From contig RDOB01000002.1 of the NCBI GenBank assembly GCA_011364965.1, positions 480,001 through 544,000 on the forward strand: DNA of 64,000 nt, written 5' to 3'. Positions 1-18,866 of the stretch are shown one piece after another. Made by a program: the position numbers and the translations under genes. The stretch comes from Candidatus Heimdallarchaeota archaeon. GTDB taxonomy: Archaea; Asgardarchaeota; Heimdallarchaeia; Hodarchaeales; Hodarchaeaceae. Numbering within the stretch: the stretch's first letter is position 1; every line of letters begins with the position of its first letter. A model generated the notes under the pieces. That model did no database searches and had not been told where the DNA came from. It saw only the letters and a program-made list of their open reading frames with translations.

Positions 1-1921
1 AATAATAAAAACTGTTTATTCTTATTAAATTAAAGAATTTAAGAAGACCCAAAGGAAAATCGTTTCCCTTTTCGATCTTAGTTTTAAGAAGTTTAAGCAA
101 TGGAAATATTGATTCTACGTTCTCTTTCATAGCAGGATAACGGATCCCCACACAAGCCATGACTAAACCCAAATTACTTCTCTTATTTTTCCAGTTGAAA
201 GCTTCTGTGTTATCTTCATACCAATAGAACATTCGAGTTTCATTTAATGCAGTTAAATTAGCAAAATCAAGATACTTATCCTCTCCTGTAAGGTTATATA
301 ATTCAGTTAAGCCAGCAACTCCATAAGCAAGTTCTAAAGGTTCCCAAAATAATTCATCAGGAGAGAAACTGATAAATTTATCTGCAGCCTTTCGTGCTTC
401 AGTTAAATATACTGAATCAGAGAATAAAGAATATGCTTGGATCATAATATAGATGTGAATTCCTAAGCAGGCATAATTCTTAGCAATAAGTGTCCAATCC
501 ATGTTCTGTTTTCCTCGATGATCTATATAGGATCTTAATCTTCCTTCGTCCTTTTCAAGGGCAATTTTAAGAGGTTGAAGCGAAAAAGGATCGTAAAAAG
601 CTGTGATCTCATAACCATGCTTTTCTACGAATTCAATTGATTTATTAGCCATATTTCTAAAGGTTTCGATGTAAGTATTTTTCTCACCTAAAATGAGGGA
701 TTGTAGCCGAATTAACCATGCGAAACGTAAAATAGGTTCGAAAAAGTACCAAGAATCCCCTATTGATATGCGAGAAGGTTTTATAATTTTAATTTGCATA
801 TTCTCCTGATCAATGATTAGACCGTTATACAAGTAATTCTCTTTCTCATCAATGAAGTCCTTTACAGCAGAGATTGTGCGTCTTATGTGATTTTCCTGTT
901 GTTTGTTACTATGCAATTTTAAGAAGAGAATCCAAGGAGGAAGAATGTCCAACATAGTCATAGTTTCTGCTGCAAATTGGGATTTTTTTATCCCCTTTCG
1001 ACGTTGCTTTTCAGATTCATCTTGTACATATGCGAAGTATTTGGGAGCCTGCGGGTCAACCCAGCAATATTTCTCTTTTAATAAGTCGTTGATGCATTGT
1101 TGGCTAAAGTAAGTCCATGTCAAGTCTTTTTGGGGAAGATTTTGAGGAAAAGGAATAAAGCTAGGTAGTAATTCAAAACTGCGAGTAACCAGATTACGAA
1201 CAGCTTCCCATTGATTGGAAATATTTTCATGATATTCTTGTGAAATAAGAAAATTATAGTTTAAACGATTTTGAGGAGGAATTTTTACTTGTTTTGGTAA
1301 TTGAACCCGATTAAGCAATCCAAATACACCTTCAGGACGAAAGGCACATTCATAAATTGAGAAACGCTCAATCGTCTCTGGATTCATCCATTGCATTTCA
1401 GAAAAATCTACAAAAAAGTAAGTGGATAATGATGAGTTAGTATTCCATAAGTAACAAGCAGGCATATCATTGGATTTCCATTCATCTGTGTGAGGTGTAT
1501 GGCGCGTAGGTTGGTTAACAAAAATATGGTTTTTATCCTGTCTGGAAGAAGTGGAGGTCATTAAAGTAACTTCAGGAGCAAATTTATCGATCATTATTTC
1601 TTTCTTGGTAATAAGAGTAATTTTAAAATAAAACCAGAGTGTCTCTTTTAGAAATTTTTCAACACTTAATTCAATAATGTATCGATTATCGGTAAGAGAG
1701 GAAATAATTATATCAATTTTTTCTAAAGATGAATTATTTTCTATAATTTTTAGTTTAGTTTTTCCAAATTGCTTTACAAACGAACTTATATTCCAATTAA
1801 AATTATTTATCCACACTCTATTATGTAATAGCTGCAATGAAATATTGTACTCCTCTTCCATTTTAATAAGTTGGATTTTATGACTTTGAGTCATAATTTC
1901 TGATATGATTTGCGTTCGCAT
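1..1921 (-). CDS. Uncharacterised DSWYF-motif (alpha/alpha)-barrel, six-hairpin glycosidase-like protein, cytoplasmic; 3' end runs off the window (>=640 aa); paralog of 16768-18717
   Basis: Not in the ORF track. Hand translation from ATG 1921 (alternative 1894) stays open to base 2: MRTQIISE...LTWTYFSQQCINDLL...GDSWYFFEP...NYACLGIHIYIMIQAYSLF...LFWEPLELA...YPAMKENVESI...LKFFNLIRINSFYY. These blocks are colinear with the 16768-18717 protein. No signal peptide seen. Confidence 0.85.
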   Translation of the reverse strand, partial: MRTQIISEIMTQSHKIQLIKMEEEYNISLQLLHNRVWINNFNWNISSFVKQFGKTKLKIIENNSSLEKIDIIISSLTDNRYIIELSVEKFLKETLWFYFKITLITKKEIMIDKFAPEVTLMTSTSSRQDKNHIFVNQPTRHTPHTDEWKSNDMPACYLWNTNSSLSTYFFVDFSEMQWMNPETIERFSIYECAFRPEGVFGLLNRVQLPKQVKIPPQNRLNYNFLISQEYHENISNQWEAVRNLVTRSFELLPSFIPFPQNLPQKDLTWTYFSQQCINDLLKEKYCWVDPQAPKYFAYVQDESEKQRRKGIKKSQFAAETMTMLDILPPWILFLKLHSNKQQENHIRRTISAVKDFIDEKENYLYNGLIIDQENMQIKIIKPSRISIGDSWYFFEPILRFAWLIRLQSLILGEKNTYIETFRNMANKSIEFVEKHGYEITAFYDPFSLQPLKIALEKDEGRLRSYIDHRGKQNMDWTLIAKNYACLGIHIYIMIQAYSLFSDSVYLTEARKAADKFISFSPDELFWEPLELAYGVAGLTELYNLTGEDKYLDFANLTALNETRMFYWYEDNTEAFNWKNKRSNLGLVMACVGIRYPAMKENVESIFPLLKLLKTKIEKGNDFPLGLLKFFNLIRINSFYY

Positions 1922-2082
1922 ACAAGTTACTTCCGATTGGAACCTTTACAGTCTTAATAACCTACATTTTATTAATAAAATTTAATATTATCTGTTAAGA
2001 TCGAACATACTTTAAAATAAATATATTGCGTGTTTCTCTCGAGAGAATTACAGCAAAAACATTGAAATTATTTCAGTCCCTC

Positions 2083-2103
2083 ACCCAGATATCAGATATG
2101 GGT
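2083..2103. promoter_or_regulatory. Candidate operator ACCCAGAT-N5-ATATGGGT in a divergent promoter region
   Basis: Near-perfect 8-5-8 inverted repeat; the same motif recurs in three other intergenic regions of the locus. Confidence 0.65.
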
Positions 2104-2198
2104 AAGTAAAATTGCATAAAATTTAATAAATAAACTTGAAAGTAAGTTATAACTCGTTAAATGATAGAATATTATCTGCTCAAGTGCCTGTGATTCCT

Positions 2199-4388
2199 AT
2201 GAGTTTAGAAAGTAATGTTAAAGATTCTTCTGTAGATCCTGAATACGAATCAAGCGAATCTTATGAAGAATATATGAAACCTGAGACTGGATTAACCAAA
2301 AGATCTTTGATTATTGCATTAGCTACCCTCTTGATTTGGGGATTAATAAATATCTTTGCAGGGAATTTTGGAGATGCCCCTACGATATTGATTGAAGAAA
2401 TGTCAATCCTTTTTCCATTTTTCTTACTAATTTTTGGTTTACAAGCCCTTGAAAGAATTCGATTACGCGGTATGAAATTAACACGACAGGAATTATCCTT
2501 TATATGGGCAATGTTGATCGTAGGAATACCTATTACTAGTTCTGGATTTTTAGCTGGTCGTTTATTATTAAATGCAATGTTCACTCACCAAGATGAGGCT
2601 CTTTCCCCTCCAAGCGGTTGGGGTCCCTTTTTCTGGGCACCATCGCTGGAAGAAATCAATCGTGCATATGAGGGTGGCGCATTTCCTAATTATGCAGAGT
2701 GGGTTCTTCCACTTGCATTTTGGGCCGTTACTTGTATTGCTTGGGCATTTATGTGCTTGTTTTTAATACAGATTTTTCGAAAACCATGGGTAGATGTTGA
2801 ACGTCTAGCGTTTCCCCTTGCTCAGCCAGTACAAGAGCTACTTGAAGCTCCCTATGCTCCCTTGAAAGAGAAAAATAAGAGATATTTCTGGTTTGCCATA
2901 GGAGCGTTATTAGGTGTCATATACGCTTCATTTGAATTTTTAAGATCTGTGTTTCAAATTGATTTATTTGAAAATATAGATATTTTTGGATTTGTACCTG
3001 GTAGAGCCTGGATGATAGATATTGACCTAGGGAGCGAGTTTGGATTGAGTCAATTTTTACCAAATGCTTACTTAGAAGCTCGGCCTGAACCTATAATGAT
3101 TGCTGCTTTTCTTCTAGTTTCACTTAATGTTCTTCTATCAGGGTTGATTTTCTATTTATTGTTCTGGGTTCTCATTCCAGTTTTTGAGACAGAATTCGGA
3201 ATTATTGATCCCCCTACGATAGCTGCGTCTCCTCCTGATATTGATCTCGGATTTGCACGTTTAGGAGGAATCTCTCTATTTGCTTTCGGAGAATTTGGTA
3301 TGTTCTTTGGAATAGCTATTTGGGCAATAATTCTCCAAAGAAAGTATCTTGCTCGTAGTATTCGTGCAATTTGGGATCATTCAGTTATTGACGAATCAGG
3401 GGAACCAATTTCCTACAGAACTGCTTATTTAGGTTTGATTATTTGTACACTGGTATTCTTTCTCGCTCTAATATTAAGCGGGTCCCCCATCAATGGTGCT
3501 ATTTACACTGTTCTTTTTCTAATAATTGGCTATATTGCTGGGGCGCGGGTTCGGGCAGAAACTGCAGGAGCTGGAATAGGTCATCCTGGATACATACATT
3601 TACATGGTATGCATTCTGTTAGAGTGATTATAGGGACTGAAAACGCGCAAACCCCCGGTTTCTATGTTACTTCTATGTGGATGCAATTTTTCCAAAGAGA
3701 TGCTGCTCCTACAAGTCCAGCAATCTCCGCTTTGGAGGCATATAACGTTGCTCGTGTAACAAATACACGCACGAGGGATATTTTCGTAGCCCAAAGTGTC
3801 GGAATTATCTCAATTATCCTTTTATGTATCGTTGCATGGCCGATTCTTGCATATGCTTATGGATTAGCAAATGAATGGTCAGCTGAGGCAGGACATAATC
3901 TGGATTATAGTGAGTCATCACTTGAGCTAGCCACTGGAGGATTCTGGGATCATAGATCATATGGAATAGAAATTTGGGGTCAAGCGATTTTAGGAATGAT
4001 ATTTGCCATTGGATTGAATGTCCTTCGATTAAGTCGTCCTTGGTTACCTTTAAACCCCATTGTTGCTCCTATTCTACTTAGTATGCGTGGTCCATATTGG
4101 TGGCTTCCAATGTTGATTGCTTACTTAATCAAATTTACAACAGTAAGAATTGGAGGAACCCGTGCTTATACTACATATCTACTTCCTGCAGCAGTAGGGT
4201 ACTTGGTAGGTACTGCTGGTATCTGGGGATATTCACTCGTTTCTGTTATGATTCCAACTATATTCCCATTCTTGTTATTCAATCCATTGATTGAAACACT
4301 CTATTATAATGTACTTGTACTCGGGATTTGGGCTTTAGCTATCATTACAATAATAGGCTTCTTAGTATATAGATTGACACGAAGATAG
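2199..4388 (+). CDS. OPT-superfamily-like multi-pass membrane transporter (DUF6785/DUF6784-like)
   Basis: About 730 aa with many TM helices. RKPWVDVERLAFPLAQ resembles the W-x3-E-R-L-x-F/Y-P motif of this group; also R-x-R-A-E-x-G. Start moved to ATG 2199 (track gives TTG 2136). Confidence 0.75.
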   Translation: MSLESNVKDSSVDPEYESSESYEEYMKPETGLTKRSLIIALATLLIWGLINIFAGNFGDAPTILIEEMSILFPFFLLIFGLQALERIRLRGMKLTRQELSFIWAMLIVGIPITSSGFLAGRLLLNAMFTHQDEALSPPSGWGPFFWAPSLEEINRAYEGGAFPNYAEWVLPLAFWAVTCIAWAFMCLFLIQIFRKPWVDVERLAFPLAQPVQELLEAPYAPLKEKNKRYFWFAIGALLGVIYASFEFLRSVFQIDLFENIDIFGFVPGRAWMIDIDLGSEFGLSQFLPNAYLEARPEPIMIAAFLLVSLNVLLSGLIFYLLFWVLIPVFETEFGIIDPPTIAASPPDIDLGFARLGGISLFAFGEFGMFFGIAIWAIILQRKYLARSIRAIWDHSVIDESGEPISYRTAYLGLIICTLVFFLALILSGSPINGAIYTVLFLIIGYIAGARVRAETAGAGIGHPGYIHLHGMHSVRVIIGTENAQTPGFYVTSMWMQFFQRDAAPTSPAISALEAYNVARVTNTRTRDIFVAQSVGIISIILLCIVAWPILAYAYGLANEWSAEAGHNLDYSESSLELATGGFWDHRSYGIEIWGQAILGMIFAIGLNVLRLSRPWLPLNPIVAPILLSMRGPYWWLPMLIAYLIKFTTVRIGGTRAYTTYLLPAAVGYLVGTAGIWGYSLVSVMIPTIFPFLLFNPLIETLYYNVLVLGIWALAIITIIGFLVYRLTRR

Positions 4389-4405
4389 GAATTAGTGAGT
4401 AGAAA

Positions 4406-7400
4406 ATGGTAAAATTTCAATCTCTCCCAACCTTTTTTTTTTAGCTTTCATTTTATCGGGTATAATATTTATCAATATTGTAACCATTGAATTAAATTCA
4501 AGTAATAAGTCTGTCAGCAGAAATGCGCAGTATTCGCAACAAACTTCTGTAAATTTTTCAGATTTAGCTGATAACATAAATTCAACATATATTAAGAATA
4601 TTGAATCTCATATTTCAAATTTCACCAATTTTGGGAGTCGTTATACTGGATATCCTGGTTATCAGGATGCTGCTACTTATATTCAGAATTTCTTCCTTCA
4701 AGAAGGATTGTCTGACGTCGAAACCCTAACTTATCCCTTAATTTCTCCTATAGATTTTGGATCTGCAATTGAAATGAACGGAGCGAATTATACTGCCTAT
4801 ACGCTTGCTCCAAATTCTGTTCATACTTGTCAGACTCCCAAAGGAGGTATCAGGGGAATTCTTATAGATGGAGGTTCAGGTGAATATGCTGAACTTGATG
4901 GAAAGGAAATTAAAGATTCTATAGTATTATTAGAATTTAATTCGGGGAATAATTGGATAAATGTTGCAAGTTTGGGAGCTAAAAGTGTGATATTTCTTCC
5001 CCCCAAAGATACAAACAGATTCGAAGCAGCTGTAAAAACAATTGAAATCCCATTGAATTTTCCTCGACTATATATCGATAATCAAACGACTGCCTTATCT
5101 CTCAAGACTCTTGCTTTAACGCAAGAAAATGAGGTAATAATTCATTCTAACATGAGATTTGCGTCAATAGAAGCAGTAAATATTGTTGGTATCCTTCCTG
5201 GTAGTTCTACTGATCAAATAATTATATCCTCATATTTCGACTCAAACTCAATAGTTCCATCATTATCTCCAGGTGCTGATGAGTCATGTGGAATATCCAC
5301 ACTACTTGAATTAATTCGAATTTTTAATGATTATAACATTACACCAGAGAAAACAATTGTTTTTTTGGCTTTTTCTGGCCATAATCAAGCCGCAGCAGGT
5401 GCGAGAGAATTTGTTTACCAAAATTATGACAAATTAAATGTCGACTCAGGTATTAAGTTGTTCTTGTCGCTTGATTTTTCTGCTTCGAACAATAAAATAG
5501 GTATAAATCCGTATGGCTATCTCTATAGCTTTAAATTGCAATTTACTACTTCAAATAACCTTGAGGGGAGACTAAAAGACGTCGGAGAAGATTATCTTAT
5601 TAATTATGCTTCTGAAATCCGCAGTCAAACTGGATATACATTTGAGGTCAAATCCTTTATAAATAAACAACGATTTGAAGATATTGCTCCAATTATTTTT
5701 GTGGGTGATCAAGAACCATTTATCGCGAGTAATGTTCTGGGATTATCCTTCTTCACAATGGAATCTTATCGAATGCGCTATAACACGCCTTTTGATATTC
5801 CCTCCCAATTAAATATTGATTTATTAAAAGCTCAAGTAATCTATTCAGTATGTGCTATCACAGAACTTGTCAATGAGGTTAATCTAGATAGTATATTAGA
5901 TTTACAACATAAAGAATTTTCTTTAAAGCACACCACGCATGTTGGATTTGGTAATGTTGAGGGTTATTGTAAAGAGTATAATGAGAGTACTGCATGGCTT
6001 TCAAATGTCCCTAATGCTTTAATTCGTGTGACAACTCTCAATGAAGCCACACGTCAAAAAGGAATTTATGCTTATTACACTAAAACAGATGAAACTGGTC
6101 ATTTTCAAGTAAGGGGAGTATCATCATCTCAACCAGATTACCCCCTGAATTTTATAGCTGAAGGATATGTTTTTGATGCTGAAGGTATGTTGATTAAAGG
6201 TATCAATCTTGGAACACATGGCAAAACATTCAAGAATTCAAATAAATTAACGAATAAGAACACGTTTATCTACCCTACAGTGTTTAAATGTGGTACTCTA
6301 TCATTATTTGGAGTAATTCACCCATACAACCAAATTGAGGTTGCTGATCTTCTTTCATATCATATCTTAGATCCAGAAACAAGAACACTCTTTTTTTCCT
6401 ATGGTTATATAGGAACTAAAACTGTAAGTCTTGTCTTTATAAGTCCTGAAAAACCTTCAATCCTTGTTGGTAAGCTTCCTGATGGAGTTCTAGGAATTTA
6501 TATCACAAATTCTTCTTCGGATAATTTGCGAGGAAATGGTTTATCTGTATCATATGGGGAATTTCGCAATATTGGTCTACATGCTTTTCAATCGTCTCGC
6601 GATCTTCAAGCAATGACGCAAACTTATGTAAACCTTTATTCATCATATAATATCTATGATTCACTGGTTGACGATACATCGCAAAGAGCTGCAAATCTTA
6701 TTCAAGCCGCGAATACATTCTATTCCAATTTAGAATATTCCAAAGCCATAGTGACAATTAAACAAGTTCAAACATGGTCATATGATGCTTTCCAAGGCTC
6801 AAGACGGGTAATCGAGGATGGAACCTCCACAACAATCTTTTTTGCCATCCTACTTCTTCCATTTGCTTTTGTTATGGCTTCTTTGTTATTTGAATTTAAC
6901 TCTGGTGCAAAGAAAGTAGTTGTGACTAGCGGGATTTATGGGTTAACATTATTATTCTTTTACTTCATTCATCCCGGATTGCATTTGTCTTCAAACATTT
7001 TTATGATTATTATTGGGATAATTGCGATCATTTTCGTTTTTCCTGCCCTTTACATGATTTACCAAGAGGGATTTGACTTTCTTCGCAGTTTACGAGTCAA
7101 GCTTATTGGAGCTCATTTTGCGGATACGAGCCGTACATCCACAATACTTATAGCGATGAGTACAGGTATTTCTAGAATGAAGAAAAGAAAAGGTCGTACA
7201 ATTATAGCGCTATCAGGAATTGTACTAATAACTTTTTCTTTAACCTTATTTACTTCAGCTAGTACGCAAGTTTCAGTATTTGCTCGTGCAGAAAATCTCT
7301 CTACACCCTATAATGGAGTATATTTGAGAACTAAAGACTGGACTACTCCTTTATCGGAACAGCTTTTATCCACATTGGAAGTTCAGTACGGAAATGAATC

Positions 7401-8835
7401 TAGGATTTCAACAAGATGGTGGTTTTATCCTCCTAGCCAACAAGCAAACGGATTTGTCAATATTTCAACTCTCTCTGGAGATGCTAGTTGGGAGGGTGAA
7501 GCGATATTAGGTCTTACTGCTATAGAACCCCTATTCCAACCTGTTTTAACTGCTTTGTCCTCTGGAAATTGGTTTACTAATTCATCTGCCCATGAGTGTA
7601 TTTTATCTGATTACTCTGCCGAAATTTTGGGTATTAATATAAACGACACAGTTCTTTGGGCTGGTAGTGAATTTAATGTCGTGGGGGTGGTTGATGGACT
7701 AATTTTTGATGGATTTAGGGATTTTGATAATGAAGCATTACCTCCCAAAAACAGGCGTGCTCCCTCTCCTAATGTTCATATCAAAACCAATCAAACCTTT
7801 TTGTTACCTTCGGAAACAGCTCGTCTATTTGGTGCATCTCTCTACTCAATTTCAATTCTTGCGGAATCTGATCAAGCACTTGAGATTGCAGAAACTTCAT
7901 CTGCAACTTATGGACGTTATTTGGAGATTAGATCGGGTTTTAATGGTCAAGTTACAATACATAAAAGGGTAATACAGAATTTGGGACAAGGACTAGCAGA
8001 AATGGGGATTCCTTTGGCTATAGCTATTTTACTTATGATAAACACATCAGTTAGTACCGTTTATGAATCAAAAAAAGAAATCGCCATATTTACATCTCTT
8101 GGTTTAGCTCCATTCCACATCGCAGGACTATTTCTTGCTGAATTTCTAGTTTATGCTGTAATTGGTGCTGTGATAGGTTACTTAGGAGGTATTACCTCTG
8201 CTGTAACTTTATCTCTACTTGGATTATTTCCTGAATCATTAGCCATCAACTACAGTTCAGGGTCTGTAATCAATGCATTAATGTTTGGAATCTTCGGTAT
8301 CTTGATTAGTACAATATATCCTCTTAGAATATCTGCAAAAATGTCCGTTCCTTCTGTTAAACGTGCGTGGGAGCTTGAAACATCTCCAGAAGAAGATGGA
8401 AAGACATGGATTATTCCTCTTCCCTTTGTAGCTGCAACAGAAGAAGAAGCTGAGGGTATAATTGAATTCTTACGAGAGTTTTTCTATATTTATGAATCTG
8501 AGAGTGTTGGAGGAGCTTTTTTTGCACAAGAAATACAATCTAGAATCACAACAACTCCAAGAGTTGAGAAACATCTTCGAGCTATTGTAACATTAGCTCC
8601 ATTTGATATGGGATTGAAGCAAAAAGTAGATCTCTATACATATCTGGACGAAATTAACTTTAGATACGTATTTATCATCAATTTAGAAAGAATGGAAGGC
8701 ATTCTATCAGCTTGGGAAACATCTGTACGACGATTTGTCGATGCAATACGGAAACAGCTCTTAATTTGGAGAAGTTTACCTCAAGAAGAGAAAATTAGAA
8801 AATCAACAGATTTTCGAAAACACATTACAAAATAA
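4406..8835 (+). CDS. Large membrane protein: signal anchor, degenerate M28-fold/PA domain, beta-sandwich, TM bundle and FtsX-like permease; frameshift at T10 (4433-4442)
   Basis: The track ORF (4708-8835) frame is open back to 4399 and encodes the conserved GSRYTGYPG..AATYI and a hydrophobic anchor. The only nearby ATG (4406) is one base out of frame across the T10 run. FtsX motif ESKKEIAIFTSLGL present. Confidence 0.8.
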
Positions 8836-8850
8836 TTAAGAGGGTATAGA

Positions 8851-10737
8851 ATGACGGCAAGTATTGAAACCATTGAAGCAAATAGTACAAAAGAAACCTA
8901 TCAAAGCGGATTGACTTGGAGGGTTGGCCTAGCAGTTATCTATTCAGCTTTAATTATCCAACCAGCAGCAATTTACTTGTATTTCGTAACTAATAATTGG
9001 TTTATAGGAGCAGTTTTAAACACTACAATAGTGCTTTTTGCTGTTCTAGCGAAAATGGCTGACAATCCATTAACCAAGCAAGAAGTGTTTATAATGATTA
9101 ACGTCACTTCTACTGCTTTAGGTATGGAAATGATTGTTCAATTGGTCTTTAATTACTATTTGAAAAATCACCCGATAACCATATCTACCCTTATAGATGG
9201 AGTCTCCCTTAGTACCTTAATTCCTAATTGGTATGCACCAGAATGGTTTGGCCCAGTTAGAACCATGTTTAATCCAGTTTTTATCTTCCCCCTTATATTA
9301 TTAATGTTTATAGGTATAATCTCTAAGGCTACAGATATTTCTCTAGGCATAATTTTCAATTATCTTTATACTAAAGTTGAAGTCCTTCCTTTTCCAACTG
9401 CAGAAGTCGAAGCTGAGCGTTCAAAATCATTAACTTGGGAGGATAAAAGAAAATTACAAATTTTTTCGATGAGTGCAATTATTGCAAGTGTAGTGGGAAT
9501 AATTTTGTATGCTTTCCCGTTAGTAATGGGTTTAACCATTATACCTATACCATGGTTTGATTTTAATTCAGCAATTGAAGGAATTATACCTGGAGCTTCG
9601 TTTGGTATTGCTACAGACATAATTACCTTCGCTACAGCTTTTATTTTACCTTTCAACGTTGTACTCAGTATATTAATTGCTTCAGTTTTTGTGAATATTA
9701 TTATGAATCCTGTATTAGTTTCAATGGGACTACTTCCTCGTTGGGAACGAGGAATGAGTCTATTAGACACATTTAATAATTCTCAATTAGATTTCTGGCT
9801 TCCTTGGACTGTAGGACTTTTGATAAGCGCTGCGCTGATTCCTGTTCTGAGAAATCCTAAAATATTCTTTACCACAATAAGGGATCTGCGGAAATTGAGT
9901 CGAGGAAAGGGAGAGGGAGTAGAGAATCCTCCAAGGCTGAGTATTTTGATATTCTTTTTTCTTCTCGGAACGGTAGGATCCGTTGCCATAGCAATGTTTT
10001 TAATTCCAAATTTATCTGTCCAGCTGATAATAATATTGCTTATATTAACAGTGGGGTGGAGTTTCATTTCAACGTTAACCATGGCTTATGCTTTTGGAAT
10101 CACAGCAAATCTACCTGTTATACCATATATCAAGGAATCAGTTTTTGTGGCTGCAGATGTTCCACTTGGAGGAGAAATTTGGTTTGTCCCTTTGATAATT
10201 ACTCAAGGTGGGGCTGGATGGGTTGCAACTTTCAAAACTGCAGATTTAACCTATACCAAACGAGGGAGTTTGATAATTGCGTCGTATTTTGCTACTTTGG
10301 TTGCTTGGACTGCTGGTCTTTTTTGGGTATCTGCATTGTTGTCAATCTCTGAAGTTCCCTCTGTGATTTTTCCAGTACCATTTTGGCCATTGGAGGTTGG
10401 CCGGTCGGTAACGTTTGTTAGTAATCCAACAGTCGTAATAAATCCTTTAATTCTTGGAATGACTTTTATTATAGCATTAATTCTATATATAATTGAATGG
10501 CAAGCGATTTTACCAATATCAGTCATATCTATTGCTGTTGGAACTACCACTGCAATCCCCTCTGCTATCACATTATTTCTAGGTGCATTATTAGGTCATG
10601 TTTTGAAGGGTCGAATGAAGAAATGGGATTCTGACCGTGCAATAGTTGTTGCTGGTCTTGGTGCTGGATTGGGGATAGTTATCTCTCTTGCAACCTTCTT
10701 ATCTTTAATACTAAACACAATAGCTTTACCTTTTTGA
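8851..10737 (+). CDS. OPT/YSL-family oligopeptide transporter-like membrane protein
   Basis: 628 aa, many TM helices, N-terminal GLTWR, LTKQE and EVLPFPTA motifs typical of the OPT family. Confidence 0.75.
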   Translation: MTASIETIEANSTKETYQSGLTWRVGLAVIYSALIIQPAAIYLYFVTNNWFIGAVLNTTIVLFAVLAKMADNPLTKQEVFIMINVTSTALGMEMIVQLVFNYYLKNHPITISTLIDGVSLSTLIPNWYAPEWFGPVRTMFNPVFIFPLILLMFIGIISKATDISLGIIFNYLYTKVEVLPFPTAEVEAERSKSLTWEDKRKLQIFSMSAIIASVVGIILYAFPLVMGLTIIPIPWFDFNSAIEGIIPGASFGIATDIITFATAFILPFNVVLSILIASVFVNIIMNPVLVSMGLLPRWERGMSLLDTFNNSQLDFWLPWTVGLLISAALIPVLRNPKIFFTTIRDLRKLSRGKGEGVENPPRLSILIFFFLLGTVGSVAIAMFLIPNLSVQLIIILLILTVGWSFISTLTMAYAFGITANLPVIPYIKESVFVAADVPLGGEIWFVPLIITQGGAGWVATFKTADLTYTKRGSLIIASYFATLVAWTAGLFWVSALLSISEVPSVIFPVPFWPLEVGRSVTFVSNPTVVINPLILGMTFIIALILYIIEWQAILPISVISIAVGTTTAIPSAITLFLGALLGHVLKGRMKKWDSDRAIVVAGLGAGLGIVISLATFLSLILNTIALPF

Positions 10738-10754: not shown

Positions 10755-11438
10755 TTAGATTCTACTCTCAATCATTTTTGTGACCTTTTCTAAATGGGTC
10801 GTTGTGATTTCCAACGCTTGAATGATTGAATCAATAGTCATTACGAATCTCTTTTTTCTTACGATTCCTTCAAGGTATTTCTCAAGTGTGATATTCCAAA
10901 TAATTGATGAAGGAGATTTGAAGTATTTCTTGAATTCTAATAGATATTGTTCGGGATCTTTCGTATTTATCAGTGGAGAATAAAGCTGAATATTCAAACT
11001 TTCTGGTTTAATATTCTTCAAGTGCGTCTGAAGGTCAATATCCTGCGTTAACAGTTCAGAAAGTGCATCAGAGATCATTAAATTCGGTATTTCTTGTTTT
11101 AAGTATGTTAAGCTAGAAGAACTTGTGAAATAGTAATATTTCTTTATAACTCCTCTTTGCTTTAATTCACACTCCACTCCTTTTAGACCTTGAAATAAAA
11201 ATTTATCTTGATTGGTAAACTCTTCTTCAGAAACGAGAGTTTTTGAAGCTATAAATTGCCATGATTTATCAGCAGAATATGAAAGACGTTTAGGTCTTAA
11301 AAGTATTGAATCAAACGAAGATCTATCAAATGGAATTAGTACACTCCCTCCAATATTTGAAATTTGTAATTCGCCATATTTACCCAGATATTTCGCAAAT
11401 GGGACAAGTAAGATATCGGAATAGGAATCTGTCATCAT
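10755..11438 (-). CDS. Hypothetical soluble protein
   Basis: 227-aa ORF filling the gap; no recognisable motif. Confidence 0.7.
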   Translation of the reverse strand: MMTDSYSDILLVPFAKYLGKYGELQISNIGGSVLIPFDRSSFDSILLRPKRLSYSADKSWQFIASKTLVSEEEFTNQDKFLFQGLKGVECELKQRGVIKKYYYFTSSSSLTYLKQEIPNLMISDALSELLTQDIDLQTHLKNIKPESLNIQLYSPLINTKDPEQYLLEFKKYFKSPSSIIWNITLEKYLEGIVRKKRFVMTIDSIIQALEITTTHLEKVTKMIESRI

Positions 11439-11514: not shown

Positions 11515-11535
11515 ACCCATATCAATTACCCATTT
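11515..11535. promoter_or_regulatory. Candidate operator: ACCCATAT-N5-ACCCATTT (two half-sites in direct orientation)
   Basis: Exact ACCCATAT half-site plus a 7/8 copy, between divergent genes. Confidence 0.5.
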
Positions 11536-11613: not shown

Positions 11614-13836
11614 ATGAGAAATATCAGGTCTGGAATCGTAATTCTTATTTTTTTAAGCTTAATCTCACTTCAAGTATATAATGTCAGTAATAATTTGAGA
11701 GATGACCAAGGTCTTAATTCCCCCCTTCCTTCTCTCAGTACAAAACAAGCTGATATATTAAAGATAGATATTCAAGTAACTGCCCCAAATGGTTATTCAA
11801 TGCAAGGAAATACTCCAATCATATTGAAACTTTCAACTATAGCTGCACAATTACCTGGAGGATACGATGCATTTGGTGATACAACACCTGCAGACTCCAC
11901 TGACAACATAAAATGGACAGGATCTTATGTAACTTATGAAAATGATATTATTCCAAGTCAAGTTGATGATATTGATAGTACGATCGGATATTCTGCTGAT
12001 GATGAATTTTTGTTTCAGCTTCCGAGCGATGTTTCTTTAGCATCAGGTGAATCGACTGATTTCGCACTTTATATTGGTACAGAAGAATTAAATTTACCAG
12101 AGCCGATTTTCCCTGAAACATGTCCTATCTATGACTATCCGGAATTGAAAGAAGTACAACAAAGATTCCCAGATATGCTTGGAACAGTTTACAATCTTGA
12201 TAACGGAAAGATAAGGGTTAGCGCTCTTGTTGATGCTGCTTGGAGTTCTGGCGGTATGTATCATCTTGCTTTAACCGATGAATTAGGTGAAAACACTTGG
12301 GATGCTATTAAACAAGGTTTTCTTGAAGACTGGGAAGCTTGGAAATGGGCTCGTTTTGCTACAGTCGAGCAATTTATAGAACTAAACGATGCTGCAGGTT
12401 CTAATCCCTTTTATTTACCAGATCCAAGTAGAACATCATTGATAAGTGGGCCTGTGAGATGTCGGATACAAATGCGCTCAACTCCTCCTTATGGTAAAGC
12501 TGCTTCATCTTGGGGAACCATTCCAAATCTCTATGGACTTGTTACATATAATCTTTTTGCCAACTTACCGTATGTAGACTATATATTAGATACAACAGGA
12601 TCAGCTAAAGATGAACATCCAACACTAATTATAGAGCTTCAAAACCGGGAATTTAATCCTGGAGGATACGGAAGTCCTTATAAGGGGTTATATTTTCCAG
12701 GATATGGCTGGCAGGATCGTTCACCTGATGATTTGGACACACATATAGCCACATCTTCCGATTTTACTGACCCTTGGTATATTGAAAAATTACCGCCAGG
12801 TGAGATAATGAATCCTGACTGGGCAGATTCTGACAAGCTAGGTGTTGGAATTATTTTTAATGATGCTGGTCTATCTAATATCACATGGAAACGAGGCTCT
12901 GAAAGCGTAAATCTTGTTTATGATGCAGCAGAGATTCCTTTGCATGCGAGATATCTTCCCTATGACGTTACTGTTACAGATGATGCAATATCGTATATGG
13001 AGGCAGCATATGAGGAATGGCTACGACCTGATCCAGATTTCTCCTTTTCTGTTTCTACTGTAAATGAATTACCTTTTGAAGCCATCTTCGTGAGTAGACC
13101 TGATGTTTATTATGACAATAACACTAACCTCATCCAAATTGAGAATATTACGGCTATTTCGACACAACTTGGGGTTATTAATAATACCATTTCTTCCACT
13201 CATACCTATGAGGTGGTAACTGCTCGTCAAAAGACCTCTACGGGACTAACCGGAGATCTTATTTGGAATTCGACAACTTCTTCTTGGGAAGTAACAAATG
13301 TGGATGTTTCTTCATTAGATCTTGAAATAGCCTATACGGTTTTCGCTACATTCCAAATAGGCGAAATCATTGGTAAAAGTCCGTATTCAAAATCCTTTCC
13401 AGAGATTCCTGATATTTATGCACCCACTATTACGAGCGTCATCCAATCACCTATGGCTACCGCAATTATCCGGCACACAGATGAGGTGAACGTCTCTGCT
13501 CTTGTTACAGATGATGATTCAGGAGTTGAGAAAGTCATTTTATCCTATAATAACGGTGAATGGTTCAATATAACAATGTCCTTAATTTCAGGGCTTTATG
13601 TTGGAACAATCCCTCCTCAAGATGAAGGATTAACAATCTGGTACAAAATCATTGCATACGATTATGAAGGAAACTGGAATGATACAGATCTATTTTCCTA
13701 TACAATAGCGATTGAATATCGGCCAGGGCAAGGATTACTTCCATTGCTTGGAATTTCTGCAATTATTATAATTGCAGTAGTAGTTGCCTTGAGAACAATG
13801 GGAATGCATCGCATTAAATACGATCAGGTTGAATAG
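11614..13836 (+). CDS. Secreted, C-terminally membrane-anchored beta-rich surface protein (DUF4861-like N-terminal region plus Ig-like stalk); paralog of 14126-15583
   Basis: Signal peptide; IPSQVDD...DEFLFQLP and GPVR motifs; many NxS/T sequons; C-terminal TM; SD-like GGAGG upstream. Confidence 0.7.
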   Translation: MRNIRSGIVILIFLSLISLQVYNVSNNLRDDQGLNSPLPSLSTKQADILKIDIQVTAPNGYSMQGNTPIILKLSTIAAQLPGGYDAFGDTTPADSTDNIKWTGSYVTYENDIIPSQVDDIDSTIGYSADDEFLFQLPSDVSLASGESTDFALYIGTEELNLPEPIFPETCPIYDYPELKEVQQRFPDMLGTVYNLDNGKIRVSALVDAAWSSGGMYHLALTDELGENTWDAIKQGFLEDWEAWKWARFATVEQFIELNDAAGSNPFYLPDPSRTSLISGPVRCRIQMRSTPPYGKAASSWGTIPNLYGLVTYNLFANLPYVDYILDTTGSAKDEHPTLIIELQNREFNPGGYGSPYKGLYFPGYGWQDRSPDDLDTHIATSSDFTDPWYIEKLPPGEIMNPDWADSDKLGVGIIFNDAGLSNITWKRGSESVNLVYDAAEIPLHARYLPYDVTVTDDAISYMEAAYEEWLRPDPDFSFSVSTVNELPFEAIFVSRPDVYYDNNTNLIQIENITAISTQLGVINNTISSTHTYEVVTARQKTSTGLTGDLIWNSTTSSWEVTNVDVSSLDLEIAYTVFATFQIGEIIGKSPYSKSFPEIPDIYAPTITSVIQSPMATAIIRHTDEVNVSALVTDDDSGVEKVILSYNNGEWFNITMSLISGLYVGTIPPQDEGLTIWYKIIAYDYEGNWNDTDLFSYTIAIEYRPGQGLLPLLGISAIIIIAVVVALRTMGMHRIKYDQVE

Positions 13837-13841: not shown

Positions 13842-13897
13842 TGAGAATCTTTAATAAGCAGAAAGTTAAGATTCTCAACCTTTTTCTATTTTTTTTT
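13842..13897 (+). terminator. Hairpin plus T-tract terminator
   Basis: TGAGAATCTT/AAGATTCTCA 10-bp inverted repeat followed by T runs just after stop 13836. Confidence 0.6.
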
Positions 13898-13973
13898 GAA
13901 TTCAATATTGATAGAGAAGTGTCTATCTTTTCCATTATTAAGGTAAACTCGAATTAGCTTAATCTCTTACTTC

Positions 13974-13994
13974 ACCCATATAATTGATACGGCT
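13974..13994. promoter_or_regulatory. Candidate operator ACCCATAT-N5-ATACGGCT
   Basis: 17/24 identical to the 2082-2105 site; upstream of 14126. Confidence 0.6.
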
Positions 13995-14125: not shown

Positions 14126-15583
14126 ATGCGAAAGAATAAATTAGCTTTTTCATTCTTGTTTGCTGCGATCTTTTTGTCACTCTTTGTTGTACCCACAATC
14201 GTTAGTGCTGCAGAGGGTAAAAAAGTAGCTGTGTTCAAAGTGACCGCAGGAACAGATGATATAGTAGCAAAAACCCCCATCGTTATCAAAGTTGAGGATT
14301 TACCAGAAGGGGTTACTGCATTAGCAACTGCAGTTGTATATGATGGAAGTGATGCTTTACCCACTCAAGCAGATAATTTGTACGGTGATAGTGCCATTGA
14401 TGAAATAGTATTCCAATTACCCGAAACGATTGCTGCAGGTGAATCTGCATCTTTTACACTCTATGTGGACGAAGAAGCATCTAATAATGGACAAAATGCT
14501 AGCGCTACCATTGATCTTGCACATGAGGATCATTATAATGAAACTTATGAGAATTGGCTACCTGCTGCTTATGTAGCAGGTTATAAGAATGCTTCTGGTT
14601 ATGCACCAGCAGTCGATGAAGTTGGTGAAGTGATTTGGGTTGAAACTGACTGGGCTATTCTATGTTTATATGTATCTGCTGGTTGGCGTCAGGGAACATG
14701 GAAGCATGCTTACATTAAAAACTCCAATCATGATGCATTAATGGCAAATTATGATCCTTGGACTGATTGGCGTTGGCAATGGCTTCGTTTTGGATACGAA
14801 TCCGATTATGGTTGGCATAACGGAGATTACCCAGATGAGGTTATGATTGCTAAAGTAGGACCTGTAAGAGCTGTAGTACAGACAAAAACTGGAGTTGGTT
14901 ATGTTGGACCCACAGGAAACGTTGATAATCTAAAATTACTCCGAACCTATACAATTTATAGTGGTTTCCAAGGTTTGAGGCAAAATATCCGTATGACTGG
15001 TTCGGATGCTGCTCAAGCTGCCACTGATTTTACTGCCCTGTATAATGGAGAAAACCTCACATTCGTTAGTAAATGGATGGACTTCGGTGTAGAAAGCACA
15101 GATGATCCTTGGGTTTATGTAGCCACTGGAAATAAATACGATCGAGTATATTCTCCAGGAACACCTAATGCTGGAGGAAATTCAAACCGTCAGAATGGTG
15201 ATAACCAGTATCTTGAACTAGCTGAGATGGAAGATTCGTATTTTGCTATGTACAGTAGTACTACCAATAATGGATATGTTATCAACTTCGGACTCAATTT
15301 TACCTGGATCATGGATTACGTTGTTGGTATTGATTGGTCGGATGGAGAAATTGTCGTTAAGCAAGAATACGATAAATTCCCATTAACTGGTGTTGAGCGA
15401 GTTTTCATTCCGTTTGGCGGATCTACCACTGATGTTGAGGCAAAAATTGATGGTTTGAATGCTATGTGGACTGCTGACTTTTCCTATGAAGTTACCAAAC
15501 CTGCTCCCGCTCCTGGATTCGAGCTTTTCGTTGGATTGTTTGCCTTCGCTGCTATAGCAATCTTTTATAAAAAGAGGAGATAA
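14126..15583 (+). CDS. Secreted PGF-CTERM (archaeosortase-type) surface protein, DUF4861-like; paralog of 11614-13836
   Basis: Signal peptide ending VSA-A; LPTQADN...DEIVFQLP; GPVRA; C-terminus APAPGFELFVGLFAFAAIAIFYKKRR is PGF + TM + basic tail. Confidence 0.8.
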   Translation: MRKNKLAFSFLFAAIFLSLFVVPTIVSAAEGKKVAVFKVTAGTDDIVAKTPIVIKVEDLPEGVTALATAVVYDGSDALPTQADNLYGDSAIDEIVFQLPETIAAGESASFTLYVDEEASNNGQNASATIDLAHEDHYNETYENWLPAAYVAGYKNASGYAPAVDEVGEVIWVETDWAILCLYVSAGWRQGTWKHAYIKNSNHDALMANYDPWTDWRWQWLRFGYESDYGWHNGDYPDEVMIAKVGPVRAVVQTKTGVGYVGPTGNVDNLKLLRTYTIYSGFQGLRQNIRMTGSDAAQAATDFTALYNGENLTFVSKWMDFGVESTDDPWVYVATGNKYDRVYSPGTPNAGGNSNRQNGDNQYLELAEMEDSYFAMYSSTTNNGYVINFGLNFTWIMDYVVGIDWSDGEIVVKQEYDKFPLTGVERVFIPFGGSTTDVEAKIDGLNAMWTADFSYEVTKPAPAPGFELFVGLFAFAAIAIFYKKRR

Positions 15584-15606
15584 ATCCTCTCCTTCCCCCT
15601 TTTTTT
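15573..15606 (+). terminator. Short hairpin plus T-tract between convergent genes
   Basis: AGAGGA/TCCTCT stem over the stop codon, then a C-run and T7. Confidence 0.4.
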
Positions 15607-15612
15607 ATAATT

Positions 15613-15834: not shown

Positions 15835-15846
15835 TAAAACCTTATT

Positions 15847-16743
15847 CTAAAGAGCTTGCAGGAGTTTTGTTTTGTCAATGAAAGCGACTGCTATACATTT
15901 ATCAGCAGCTCCATAATAAACCAAAAATTTCTTATCTTTCTCGACCACTCCACAAGTAAAACAAACATTTGGTACGTCTCCTTCCTTTTCGTAATCTAAT
16001 TCAGGCTTTAAAATCGGATCCTCGATAATACTAATAATCTTCGTGGGATCCTTCAGATCAAGAAGCATTACTCCTAAACTATAATGTAATTCCTTACTTA
16101 CACCATGATAGAAATTCACCCATCCTTCATCTGTTTTAATTGGGGGTGCTCCTGCACCTACTTTGAAATCTTGCCAAGAGTTTTTGATAGGAGAGAAGAA
16201 TTTTTTATGATCCGTCCAATTTTTCAGATCTTTTGAGTATGCAATCCACATATCAGGTTCTGGTGCTCGATGCATTAGTGCATAACGTCCATTTATTTTC
16301 TCTGGAAATAATACTCCATCTTTATCACGATACTCATTAATTACTGTTCCATATTTTTTGAATGTTTTGAAGTCAGAGGTTGAAGCAATTCCTATATGGA
16401 AATCCACATCCCCTGCGGGAACAGGTGTTCGAACTGCGGTATAACAGATGTAATATTTTCCTTCCAACCATGTTATGCGGGGATCCTCGACTCCATACTT
16501 TTCAAATGGTTCCTCTGGTACCATTACGGGTTCTGGTCGTGCTTTAAAATTATAACCATCATCACTCTCTGCCAAACCTAAAGTGGAAATATACGTTTCA
16601 TAATTTCCAATTGCACGATATAATAAAATTATTTTTTCTTTGAATAGCGTTGCTCCGCAGTTAAAAACTGCACCTTGTTGCCATTCATAATTAGGATTCG
16701 GTTTCAATACTGGATTTTTCTTATAACGCTCTAAATATACCAT
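15847..16743 (-). CDS. Glycoside hydrolase family 130 protein, probable beta-mannoside phosphorylase
   Basis: NPVL, AVFNCGA, LLYRA, GVEDPRIT, DKDGVLFPEKING, HR, KVGAGAPP, YHG, PNVCF and YYGAAD motifs; basic phosphate-site residues appear retained. Confidence 0.92.
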   Translation of the reverse strand: MVYLERYKKNPVLKPNPNYEWQQGAVFNCGATLFKEKIILLYRAIGNYETYISTLGLAESDDGYNFKARPEPVMVPEEPFEKYGVEDPRITWLEGKYYICYTAVRTPVPAGDVDFHIGIASTSDFKTFKKYGTVINEYRDKDGVLFPEKINGRYALMHRAPEPDMWIAYSKDLKNWTDHKKFFSPIKNSWQDFKVGAGAPPIKTDEGWVNFYHGVSKELHYSLGVMLLDLKDPTKIISIIEDPILKPELDYEKEGDVPNVCFTCGVVEKDKKFLVYYGAADKCIAVAFIDKTKLLQAL

Positions 16744-16767
16744 TTTATTTTCATTCCTTTCAATATT

Positions 16768-18717
16768 TCATTTTTTTGGTTGTAATATCTTTACAAAGAA
16801 TATTGTAAGTACAATTAAAGATCCTATTAGAAAGATTATGATTGGCACTGATTCTTCAAGCGAAGGATAATGACTTTGGGGAGTTGTTGTTGCAGTTGTA
16901 GTACTTGTTTCTGTTAATATTGCGCTTGATGTAGCAGTTGTTAACCAATTGGTTTCCTTTGGAGTATATTCGAAAGAAATCATATTATCGGAATTAATTG
17001 TCAAATAAGATGATCCTAAACTAGGAAGAGTTATATTAAATGCCTCTCCTGGTTGGATGTTCTCTAATAAAAGAGACCCATTCGCATAAATATTATAAGG
17101 GGCATTCATTTGCTTTAAAGTGAATTCTAAGGTCTTTGATTCGGTATATGGATTAAAAACAATAAATTGTCGTCGATTTGGAGTGGTTGGATAGCCACGA
17201 TCAAATATATTAAGATTTAGAATCATTGCATTCCTATCAGATGATTCAGCAAGGGCTTCAAATAGTAACATCAGCCAAAAAGTTTCCCCAGCACCATAGA
17301 TCTCTTTACCATTGTAGCCAGTTAAATAACGATAACTTTCTGGTTCATATTCTCTCACGGCATAATAATCGATATCCTCATATGGGATATACTGCAGACT
17401 TGTAGGTCCAAAAGGTCTTTCCTGTTCATCAGGGATATTCGGAGAGAAAAAGTAGAAATGATTGATCCTATTAAGATTGAAGATTTTTAGTGGTTCAATG
17501 GCTTTAAAATTTGGGATTTTATATAAGAATTTGAATAAATCTACCCAAAAAATTATACTTTCGATATTTTCTTTTGCAGCAGGTGCATTAATTCCCCCAG
17601 TTTCTTTAGGATTATAATAAGGTGAATAAAGGCCGTCCCGCCACGTTAAAGGAAGCCAATCACTTGATTGAGGATAAAAATTTTCTAATCCAGTTGAGCC
17701 ATGGTTATAGTACATTGCTTGCTGTTCTGCATAAAAGAATTCTAAAGCTAATTGAACAAAGTCTCTAGGAGTATCGATAATGTCATCAATTAAATCATAT
17801 TGAATTAATTTCGCAGATGCCGCAACTGCAGCTGCTAACTCTTGTGGTTCATATAATAGCATATAAGGTGGTTGAACCAAACGCATTGTAGCTAAAATTT
17901 TATCTGCTTCCTCTAATAAAGTGATATTTCCTGTTAGTTCATATGCAGTTATCAAACTATATGCTAATAAACCTCCAGTACAGTAGTTTACAGTATTATA
18001 TCCACTTGCAGCATATTTAGTTATGGGGTCAACAAATTGAGGAAAGAGATAATTAAAATTATGTGCCATATCTATGGCTGACTGTAAGCTCCCAAAATAG
18101 GGTTCACCTAATACAGTTTCATTAGAAATCGAATAAAGATGTCCCCATTTTAGTACCGAGTTTTCCATGAAATACCAACTATCATGCTTTCCCTCATTTG
18201 GACGATTAGTCGATTGTTTAGTAATAGGATTATAATAATCGGGTAAATCATTTATCATGTCCTCTAATATATTCATACGAGATGTATTTGATGGAAATAA
18301 ACGCAAATATTGATATAACGGCCAGATTACATCCATTGTACTCATTAATTCAACAATTTCACGTATTCTATCAGCACCTCCCCATCCGTCTGTACCTTTA
18401 ACATAGGGCCTGAATCCCTTGATATTAGTAATAGGTTCAATTATCCAGCTAAGATCAAAGATCATTAAATCTTCTATACTCTTCTCCGCATAATCTGTCC
18501 ATGATGTTGCATTTTCTGGAAAATTACTATAACTTGGCAAAGTTTCTAAATCCGTCTTCTTTTGAGAAATCATTGCTTCCCAAGTGGTTTGAAAAGTGTC
18601 AGAGCTTTGATCAATTTGAAAAAAATTAGAACTCGGAGTAATAAACGGAAGAATAAAAATACAAAGGAATCCTCCGGTAATAAATATTGTAGTTGTTTTT
18701 CTATTCACGTTAATCAT
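16768..18717 (-). CDS. Secreted, membrane-anchored DSWYF-motif (alpha/alpha)-barrel glycosidase-like protein
   Basis: N-terminal hydrophobic signal; HDSWYF; AYELTG...LEEA helical-hairpin repeat; Thr-rich linker; C-terminal TM plus KK. Confidence 0.75.
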   Translation of the reverse strand: MINVNRKTTTIFITGGFLCIFILPFITPSSNFFQIDQSSDTFQTTWEAMISQKKTDLETLPSYSNFPENATSWTDYAEKSIEDLMIFDLSWIIEPITNIKGFRPYVKGTDGWGGADRIREIVELMSTMDVIWPLYQYLRLFPSNTSRMNILEDMINDLPDYYNPITKQSTNRPNEGKHDSWYFMENSVLKWGHLYSISNETVLGEPYFGSLQSAIDMAHNFNYLFPQFVDPITKYAASGYNTVNYCTGGLLAYSLITAYELTGNITLLEEADKILATMRLVQPPYMLLYEPQELAAAVAASAKLIQYDLIDDIIDTPRDFVQLALEFFYAEQQAMYYNHGSTGLENFYPQSSDWLPLTWRDGLYSPYYNPKETGGINAPAAKENIESIIFWVDLFKFLYKIPNFKAIEPLKIFNLNRINHFYFFSPNIPDEQERPFGPTSLQYIPYEDIDYYAVREYEPESYRYLTGYNGKEIYGAGETFWLMLLFEALAESSDRNAMILNLNIFDRGYPTTPNRRQFIVFNPYTESKTLEFTLKQMNAPYNIYANGSLLLENIQPGEAFNITLPSLGSSYLTINSDNMISFEYTPKETNWLTTATSSAILTETSTTTATTTPQSHYPSLEESVPIIIFLIGSLIVLTIFFVKILQPKK

Positions 18718-18845
18718 CCAATGTCTAACTCCTTGGGAAATCCTACGGAGTTTATATGAACATAAAGTTGATTTCCAAGATTAAGCAAATTATTCTAGGT
18801 CTTCATGCTTGATTAAATAAGTTTGATGCTCATTAATCTCTTAAT

Positions 18846-18866
18846 AACTGTATTTATTATATGGGT
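18846..18866. promoter_or_regulatory. Candidate operator AACTGTAT-N5-ATATGGGT
   Basis: Exact right half-site and 5/8 left half-site, upstream of the 18717-to-15613 operon. Confidence 0.55.

Follow-up and report, generated by a model that had tools for sequence, protein, structure and literature searches.

The first 18,866 nt of the window, i.e., of the whole 64,000-nt stretch analyzed here (positions 480001-544000 of contig C9 in the 2.97-Mb, 16-contig genome of a Candidatus Heimdallarchaeota archaeon), contain nine large open reading frames (ORFs; g1 to g9, Table 1). With moderate confidence, we read them as the larger part of a co-regulated island of ~26 kb for harvesting a mannose-containing glycan, probably one with beta-1,2-mannosides, by way of a membrane machine encoded by g2, g3 and g4 (hereafter, the triad). 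In the proposed pathway, the surface-anchored galactose-mutarotase-fold proteins g6 and g7 would bind the glycan and g9, a surface-anchored GH76-like enzyme, would cut it. The fragments would then cross the membrane through the triad, and inside the cell the GH76-like g1 and the GH130 phosphorylase g8 would finish the breakdown to mannose-1-phosphate. A first-pass annotation, which had counted ten contiguous genes rather than nine in this interval, proposed the same succession of capture, outside cleavage, import, inside cleavage and phosphorolysis, and this logic fits the folds modeled for g9 and g7, the GH130 assignment, the predicted topology of the proteins and the recurrence of the enzymes with the triad in other lineages. 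The relatives of the window are labeled Hodarchaeales or Heimdallarchaeota.

Table 1. Predicted genes and operator sites of the island within the window (TM, transmembrane).
Feature	Position	Strand	Description
g1	1..1921	-	Cytoplasmic protein of the "barrel" family (GH76-like, (alpha/alpha)6); ORF, paralog of g9
g2	2199..4388	+	DUF6785/DUF6784 polytopic membrane protein, OPT superfamily; alternative TTG start at 2136
g3	4399..8835	+	1478-codon fusion of Peptidase_M28, MacB_PCD and FtsX (Pfam)
g4	8851..10737	+	OPT-like, 14 TM segments
g5	10755..11438	-	Conserved 227-aa cytoplasmic protein without family match
g6	11614..13836	+	Surface protein: signal/anchor, DUF4861-like galactose-mutarotase-fold region, Ig-like domain, C-terminal TM anchor
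g7	14126..15583	+	Surface protein: DUF4861 N-terminal match, galactose-mutarotase-like supersandwich, Heimdall-CTERM sorting signal
g8	15847..16743	-	Cytoplasmic GH130
g9	16768..18717	-	Surface-anchored GH76-like (alpha/alpha)6 barrel and beta-sandwich, Thr-rich linker, C-terminal TM segment
Operator pair, g1/g2 divergent region	2083..2103		ACCCAGAT (+) and ACCCATAT (-, at 2096), 13 bp apart
Operator pair, g5/g6 divergent region	11515..11535	+	ACCCATAT (at 11515) and ACCCATTT (at 11528) in the same orientation, spaced by 13 bp
Operator copy upstream of g7	13974..13981	+	Exact motif
Operator copy upstream of g9	18859..18866	-	Exact motif

The identification of g8 as a member of GH130 is confirmed by its match to PF04041 (226 bits; cut-off, 26), which covers profile positions 27-316 of 320. 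It also matches solved 1,2-beta-oligomannan and beta-1,2-mannobiose phosphorylases over the full length (PDB 9fj8 and 7fip; E 1e-76). The best NCBIfam model is the beta-1,2-mannobiose phosphorylase equivalog NF052550 at 319 bits, which is under its cut-off of 450. The scores with phosphorylase models (319 and 256 bits) exceed that with the beta-1,2-mannosidase model (126 bits), a comparison that covers overall similarity. Judged from these matches and from the folds described below, the substrate likely carries beta-mannosides. The mannoside part of the cargo suggested in the first-pass annotation is thus plausible, but the nearest relatives of g8 point to beta-1,2-mannosides and not specifically to N-glycans.

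No match to g1 or g9 was found in Pfam (E <= 0.01) or NCBIfam, and comparison of the g1, g9 and g7 sequences with PDB chains yielded nothing usable, the best being a LanC-like protein at E 0.3. As noted previously, g1 and g9 are paralogs (E 2e-16), with g9 outside and g1 inside. In the hydropathy scan on which the topology is based, TM segments are absent from g1, g5 and g8, which are placed in the cytoplasm, while g6, g7 and g9 each possess an N-terminal signal/anchor and a C-terminal anchor and are placed outside. g1 is 811 aa in full length, and its C-terminal 171 aa (514 nt) fall before the window start. The family profile of g1 and g9 comprises 440 cluster representatives, and the named members among ten clusters looked up are all annotated as "hypothetical." In larger proteins, the barrel domain is fused to Laminin_G_3, CBM96, SLH and HpiC1-like modules. 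The model of g9 (pLDDT, 87; pTM, 0.85) consists of an (alpha/alpha)6 barrel and a beta-sandwich. Its top structural matches in an exhaustive VIA search are GH76 alpha-mannanases and BT_3782 (Z, 24; root mean square deviation, 3.5-3.9 A over 326-337 residues), so that the (alpha/alpha)6 fold superposes on GH76 structures, and its Foldseek matches are GH127/146, AGE epimerases, GH88 and GH76. At the sequence level, the conserved acidic residues of the family are D179 (in DSWY), E270, E290, E383, E447 and D448; GH76 enzymes are characterized by an adjacent catalytic Asp-Asp pair. These models suggest that the barrel proteins are an unannotated family of GH76-like (alpha/alpha)6 enzymes and a candidate for a new glycoside hydrolase (GH) family.

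The strongest argument that the triad may import the substrate is that it occupies the importer slot next to these enzymes, a position that we infer from gene order. Five distant members of the barrel family were sampled, of which one was uninformative. In a Chloroflexia bacterium, the order is LacI, substrate-binding protein (SBP), two permeases, GH130, barrel and GH2 beta-mannosidase (locus L154). A second locus contains LacI, SBP, permeases, an MGH1-like GH, a protein of unknown function and the barrel, while in a third a TonB-dependent receptor precedes the barrel and GH130. In the fourth, which is labeled Nitrososphaerota (L156), the barrel lies beside the triad and GH130. GH130 and the barrel also stand beside the triad in two other distant archaeal loci sampled. 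In a metagenomic contig of archaeal type (L010), GH5, a CE7-type esterase, the triad, GH130 and a barrel-family protein are found together. In a Thermoproteota archaeon (L107), a single same-strand run includes GH130, a g9-like protein, g3, g4, two g6-like proteins and g2. By its gene order, the GH130 and barrel pair is a conserved catabolic cassette whose transporter varies by lineage. The triad is assigned to the importer slot because the same enzyme pair is found with sugar ATP-binding cassette (ABC) or TonB-dependent transporters in bacteria and with the triad in archaea. The triad is followed by GH130 in another locus (L005), and one Omnitrophota locus has GH130 just upstream. In an archaeal genome (GCA_964655075.1; L003:2968-18791), the triad lies between genes for GH66, GH15, two Glucodextran_C proteins and a HAD hydrolase, an arrangement that is, from its predicted products, a dextran/alpha-glucan version.

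Synteny with the order g1-g2-g3-g4-g5-g6-g7-(g8)-g9 extends to 11 congeneric species, with g9 sometimes moved. Among 400 Asgard genomes, the g3 fusion is essentially confined to this genus, where it occurs in 13 of 21 genomes. The system is not restricted to archaea as first described, however: a scan of a genome collection found the fusion family at no fewer than 540 loci, i.e., at least 540, including those of Armatimonadota, Latescibacterota, Gemmatimonadota, Omnitrophota and Planctomycetota besides Bathyarchaeia and Thermoproteota, and most members are bacterial. In a survey of 80 loci, g4 adjoins g3 in nearly all with a long enough flank, and g2 is often adjacent. One further locus (L008:1-24617) has a 27%-identical fusion and an OPT-like partner among BNR_2 (sialidase-like), several URO-D-type genes, a second FtsX protein of 996 aa and a separate DUF6784 gene.

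The motif ACCCATAT, reported earlier as common to all four promoter-type intergenic regions of the interval, is indeed found in each of them (Table 1), and its copies tend to occur as pairs with 13-bp spacing. Seven copies exist in the window, four of which are in these regions, where ~0.04 are expected from 2.55 per 64 kb; with 105 copies genome-wide, the motif shows no general excess. A fifth exact copy is ~160 nt upstream of the ABC operon that precedes the window (L002:8567), which gives five exact copies in five promoter-type regions of the island. Besides the window, 10 congener loci have the g1/g2 region, and 3 of them keep the operator there; upstream of g7 it is conserved in 6 of 9 congener loci as 13-bp-spaced pairs. 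Pairs 12-14 bp apart with at most one mismatch in all number five in the whole genome: two in the island, two on contig 11 and one on contig 14, between LVIVD-repeat and DUF3795 genes. The contig 11 pairs (G000:C11:381799-382701; L140:9799-10734) each precede one of two tandem paralogs of 105-115 aa that are 53% identical, and a GAPDH-like gene comes next. Of the 21 genomes of the genus, 18 retain both these small genes and the motif, and some of the 18 lack the island. The encoded proteins have only sub-threshold winged helix-turn-helix (wHTH) matches (DUF2582 and HTH_45; E about 0.02). The ACCCATAT operator probably belongs to this pair of small putative winged-helix proteins, which are candidates for the regulator of a candidate sugar regulon.

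They are better candidates than g5, which had been annotated as a wHTH protein, because g5 shows no HTH signal: neither Pfam nor NCBIfam, nor a profile search of the PDB or a search of the Atlas, gave an HTH family match for it. We rejected g5 as the operator-binding regulator on this ground and on the ground that it is the other small genes, those of contig 11, around which the operator is found. g5 is conserved in 10 of 11 congener loci and adjoins the triad in three TACK loci. Two other features of the window were observed. Directly after g6 (13843-13890), a hairpin (GAGAATCTT...AAGATTCTC) followed by a T-run resembles a terminator between g6 and the g7 unit. Beyond g9, positions 18914-22048 of the minus strand encode a 1044-aa helical protein, at the C-terminus of which weak matches to DZR, zf-RING_2 and Prok-RING_1 indicate a zinc ribbon and a RING-like finger; this protein carries no sign of island membership.

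The paralogy of the two surface proteins stands (g6 versus g7, E 2e-11). g6 has a weak Big_7 match in Pfam, and g7 matches the Heimdall-CTERM model NF045529 with 25.9 bits (cut-off, 24) at residues 461-485. The g7 model (pLDDT, 82) is a supersandwich of the galactose-mutarotase type, for which the nearest structure in the VIA search is the C-terminal region of the GH38 protein Ams1 (Z, 18.9), followed by PL26 and aldose epimerases. Non-carbohydrate folds in the barrel and surface proteins, which would have spoken against glycan utilization, were not obtained, since the g9 model is GH76-like and the g7 model is galactose-mutarotase-like; both are carbohydrate-type folds.

The membrane operon is as tight as described earlier, with gaps of 17 nt (g2 stop at 4388 to the ATG at 4406) and 15 nt (g3 stop at 8835 to the g4 ATG at 8851). 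g2 has about 12 TM segments in the hydropathy scan and matches DUF6785 (129.7 bits; cut-off, 25) and DUF6784 (34.9 bits; cut-off, 26.4), both above the gathering scores; no literature on DUF6785/DUF6784 was found. g4 of the window is below every Pfam threshold, while its 29-32% identical orthologs match PF03169 (OPT), weakly in two loci; orthologs in distant archaea are 31-32% identical. g2 and g4 are related only at E 0.14 by BLAST but with a probability of 98.4% (E 9e-15) over 558 columns in profile-profile comparison. The description of both as OPT-like proteins holds because of this homology along their length and the OPT matches of the g4 orthologs.

From Pfam and the hydropathy scan, g3 is predicted to consist of an N-terminal anchor, an outer head of ~780 aa with the PA/M28 fold, three TM segments, a MacB-type periplasmic core domain, an FtsX TM bundle and a conserved cytoplasmic tail of 170 aa, for which no match was found among solved structures. 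The FtsX score is 40.9 bits (cut-off, 25.5), and that of MacB_PCD is 22.4 bits, under the cut-off of 27, yet the latter domain is recorded for many orthologs. g3 thus combines the two features of a type VII ABC (MacB/FtsX) permease, a C-terminal FtsX TM domain and a periplasmic core domain. A complex prediction, run without controls, in which g4 was joined with three TM pieces of g3 scored 0.01 and counts neither way. Relative to the g3 ORF, the ATG at 4406 stands in another frame, and the two frames join at a T10 run (4433-4442). A T8-T11 homopolymer is present in the signal-anchor codons of every g3 ortholog, and in one congener (L044:5300-5345) the only upstream ATG is likewise out of frame across the T-run. 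A homopolymer error in the assembly, slippage during transcription or a start under phase variation could explain this conflict. A g3 paralog of ~1250 aa (L006/L007; G074:C14:285517-289089) is also present in many genomes of the genus. It matches residues 1-~960 and ~1195-1478 and thus lacks the MacB-type outer domain; the g3 query used did not retrieve it from the window's genome. We rejected this paralog as a part of the system, as it stands alone without OPT-like neighbors.

Just before the window, at 5083 to 832 nt from its start (L002:6917-11168), lie genes for a PqqD-like protein, a 313-aa protein, a Cys4 protein, an FtsX protein of 200 aa that has four TM segments but lacks an outer domain (FtsX200) and two ABC ATPases. 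This module adjoins g1 in all six named Heimdall-group loci examined. Within the genus, the genomes with an FtsX200 ortholog are precisely the 13 that have the fusion, and the other 8 have neither; the 13 genomes are kin and the genes are linked, and therefore this pattern represents one island and not 13 independent events. Bacteria lend independent support: in Armatimonadota, a run of g3, g4, a 330-aa homolog of the 313-aa protein, PqqD, FtsX and ATPase is found, whose ATPase matches ATPase1 preceding the window with 311-335 bits. In several Latescibacterota loci, a 262-aa ATPase gene is directly before g2-g3-g4, and all five Thermoproteota genomes with the triad have one clear FtsX200 ortholog elsewhere in the genome. 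The importer had been described as non-ABC. This description, and likewise the idea of an FtsX protein without an ATPase, is most likely wrong because the ABC module adjoins the island, has the ACCCATAT motif in its promoter region, accompanies the fusion in the genus and forms operons with it in Armatimonadota and Latescibacterota. In terms of sequence and gene order, the triad machine is best regarded as a type VII ABC machine, very likely driven by ATP, that has partners of OPT fold. g3 would be its large permease subunit, served by the small FtsX, the two ATPases and the PqqD-like protein; the two OPT-fold proteins may form the pore, and the ATP-driven FtsX fusion may capture or feed the substrate with its remodeled M28/PA head.

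Several points weigh against the harvesting of mannosides through this machine. GH130 is adjacent in only 2 of the 11 congener loci besides the window. The recurring neighbors of the machine are Peptidase_M16 and others in 17 loci of the Armatimonadota type (119 neighbor ORFs) and TPR, M19 and amidohydrolases in 20 loci of Latescibacterota and other bacteria (113 neighbor ORFs), and no GH family recurs among the families listed for these 232 neighbor ORFs of 37 bacterial loci, where the lists hold the 25 commonest families and may hide single GH matches. For 14 further TACK loci (78 neighbor ORFs), only GH130 (two members) and GH31 (one member) are listed. We know of no MacB-type ABC system that imports, and the substrates known for OPT carriers are peptides and metal chelates and not sugars. 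The substrate itself is assigned only through modeled folds and nearest relatives. The absence of a recurring GH family in bacteria means that the machine itself is therefore not glycan-specific. The association with carbohydrate-active enzymes (CAZymes) that the first-pass annotation proposed to survey is specific and repeated in archaea, while no such family recurs in bacteria. Accordingly, the data support an interpretation resembling a polysaccharide utilization locus (PUL) for the archaeon of the window and several other archaeal lineages, with the machine being widespread in bacteria and not tied to CAZymes there.

We tentatively propose that the triad, FtsX200, the ATPases and the PqqD-like protein may constitute a new class of uptake machine, a possibility that we put at less than even. 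In such a machine, a MacB-type mechanotransducing ABC system would power or gate OPT-fold channels, which would make it the first type VII ABC importer, recruited by archaea for oligosaccharide import instead of SBP-dependent ABC or TonB-dependent systems.

An alternative that we consider improbable, although it fares best among the rival explanations, is that the membrane machine moves peptides or glycopeptides and that the island degrades glycopeptides, e.g., from the glycoproteins of other cells, with the CAZymes trimming the glycan part. Membership of g2 and g4 in the OPT superfamily, the Peptidase_M16, M19 and amidohydrolase neighbors in bacteria in place of GHs, the PqqD-like domain of the conserved module (PqqD domains are peptide-binding domains) and the M28/PA fold of the g3 head all suit this explanation. 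The head, however, lacks the features of a working M28 peptidase. When 82 g3 relatives were aligned by hmmalign with the Aeromonas aminopeptidase as the reference, the catalytic Glu was missing from all 82, with His at the position of the general base E151 in 80. The first His ligand is mostly missing as well, since the H97 position is Tyr in 67 of the 82, and the E152 position is F, H, W or Y. In g3 itself, H97, E151 and E152 are replaced by Tyr, His and Asn, respectively, and the protein lacks the complete set of co-catalytic zinc ligands (H, D, E, D and H) and general-base Glu that defines Peptidase M28. The canonical two-zinc site is missing throughout the relatives, as the term pseudo-peptidase used in the first-pass annotation implied, while D281, D359 and D466 are nearly invariant. 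A conserved alternative site replaces the canonical one, and therefore the head is remodeled rather than decayed. Furthermore, a Pfam search found no peptidase encoded in the island, and in other lineages the GH130 and barrel cassette is accompanied by ordinary ABC importers for sugars or by TonB-dependent receptors.

Less probable still is that the island remodels the cell's own envelope glycans, in which case the type VII ABC mechanotransducer would control the surface GH76-like enzyme and GH130 would act toward synthesis. FtsEX, which controls wall hydrolases, offers a model for this, and known MacB/FtsX systems work outside the membrane rather than import. The fungal GH76 wall protein Dfg5 is among the structural matches of g9 (Z, 19), and the surface proteins bear archaeal sorting signals. 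The cytoplasmic location of both the g1 paralog and the phosphorylase, however, implies an intracellular pool of oligosaccharides, the barrel family is found with GH130 in LacI-controlled uptake operons, and the island is dispensable, being absent from 8 of the 21 genomes of the genus. It is very unlikely that the CAZyme genes only adjoin the membrane operon and share no function with it: the triad is without CAZymes in most bacterial loci and GH130 is often not adjacent to the island in congeners, but a common operator is present in every promoter region, synteny is retained across 11 species despite rearrangements, and all parts are combined in an operon-like manner in L107 and L156.

The glycan-harvesting island favored here provides a testable carbohydrate-harvesting pathway for Hodarchaeales. 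No other Asgard group is closer to eukaryotes, and the physiology of Hodarchaeales is known mostly by inference. No literature describing this system was found in searches on FtsX/M28/OPT machines, archaeal GH130 with OPT and Asgard polysaccharide utilization. What is new is the link between the GH130/barrel cassette and the triad, the fold assignments, the operator with its candidate regulator and the argument from the transporter slot. In bacteria and archaea alike, the barrel family, a candidate new GH family, occurs in partnership with GH130. For a widespread multi-subunit membrane machine without a studied member, a place in the importer slot of a mannoside cassette would be the first functional context, and that the machine is very likely ATP-driven alters how its reconstitution should be done. 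The operator and its candidate regulator provide an entry to an Asgard sugar regulon.

The island can be compared with four known systems. The yeast-mannan PULs of Bacteroides thetaiotaomicron use surface and periplasmic GH76 enzymes, the GH130 protein BT3780 and SusC/SusD. Like the PULs of Bacteroidota, the island is a co-regulated cluster with predicted surface glycan binders, an outer and an inner enzyme of GH76 fold and a GH130 protein probably for beta-1,2-mannosides, and g9 superposes best on BT_3782 and the B. thetaiotaomicron GH76 enzymes. It differs from them in that it belongs to an archaeon without an outer membrane, the final step would be that of a cytoplasmic phosphorylase, g1 and g9 have no match to the Pfam model Glyco_hydro_76 at E <= 0.01, and the transporter is unrelated and unstudied. 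No Pfam family of a SusC-like TonB-dependent transporter or a SusD-like lipoprotein was found in the nine genes or the upstream module, and by that definition the island is not a PUL of the Bacteroidota type. With type VII ABC systems (MacB, LolCDE, FtsEX and BceAB), the machine shares the 4-TM FtsX bundle and MacB-type core domain of g3 and separate ATPase genes nearby. In contrast to them, g3 is an 8-TM tandem fusion with a remodeled M28/PA head of 780 aa as the first of its outer domains, it is encoded with OPT-fold proteins, and the module includes a 200-aa FtsX protein without an outer domain and a PqqD-like protein. The likeness to OPT carriers (TC 2.A.67; PF03169) lies in the matches of the g4 orthologs to PF03169 and the homology of g2 to g4, whereas g2 and g4 are paired around an ABC permease and their context is glycan and not peptide or metal chelate. 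Finally, as in the bacterial GH130 operons with SBP-dependent sugar ABC importers, such as the beta-1,2-mannoside phosphorylase loci of Thermoanaerobacter and the Chloroflexia locus L154, GH130 is paired with further mannoside-active enzymes, and the barrel family is shared with L154. In the archaeal island, however, the triad replaces the importer, and the putative binders are membrane- or lipid-anchored surface proteins instead of an SBP.

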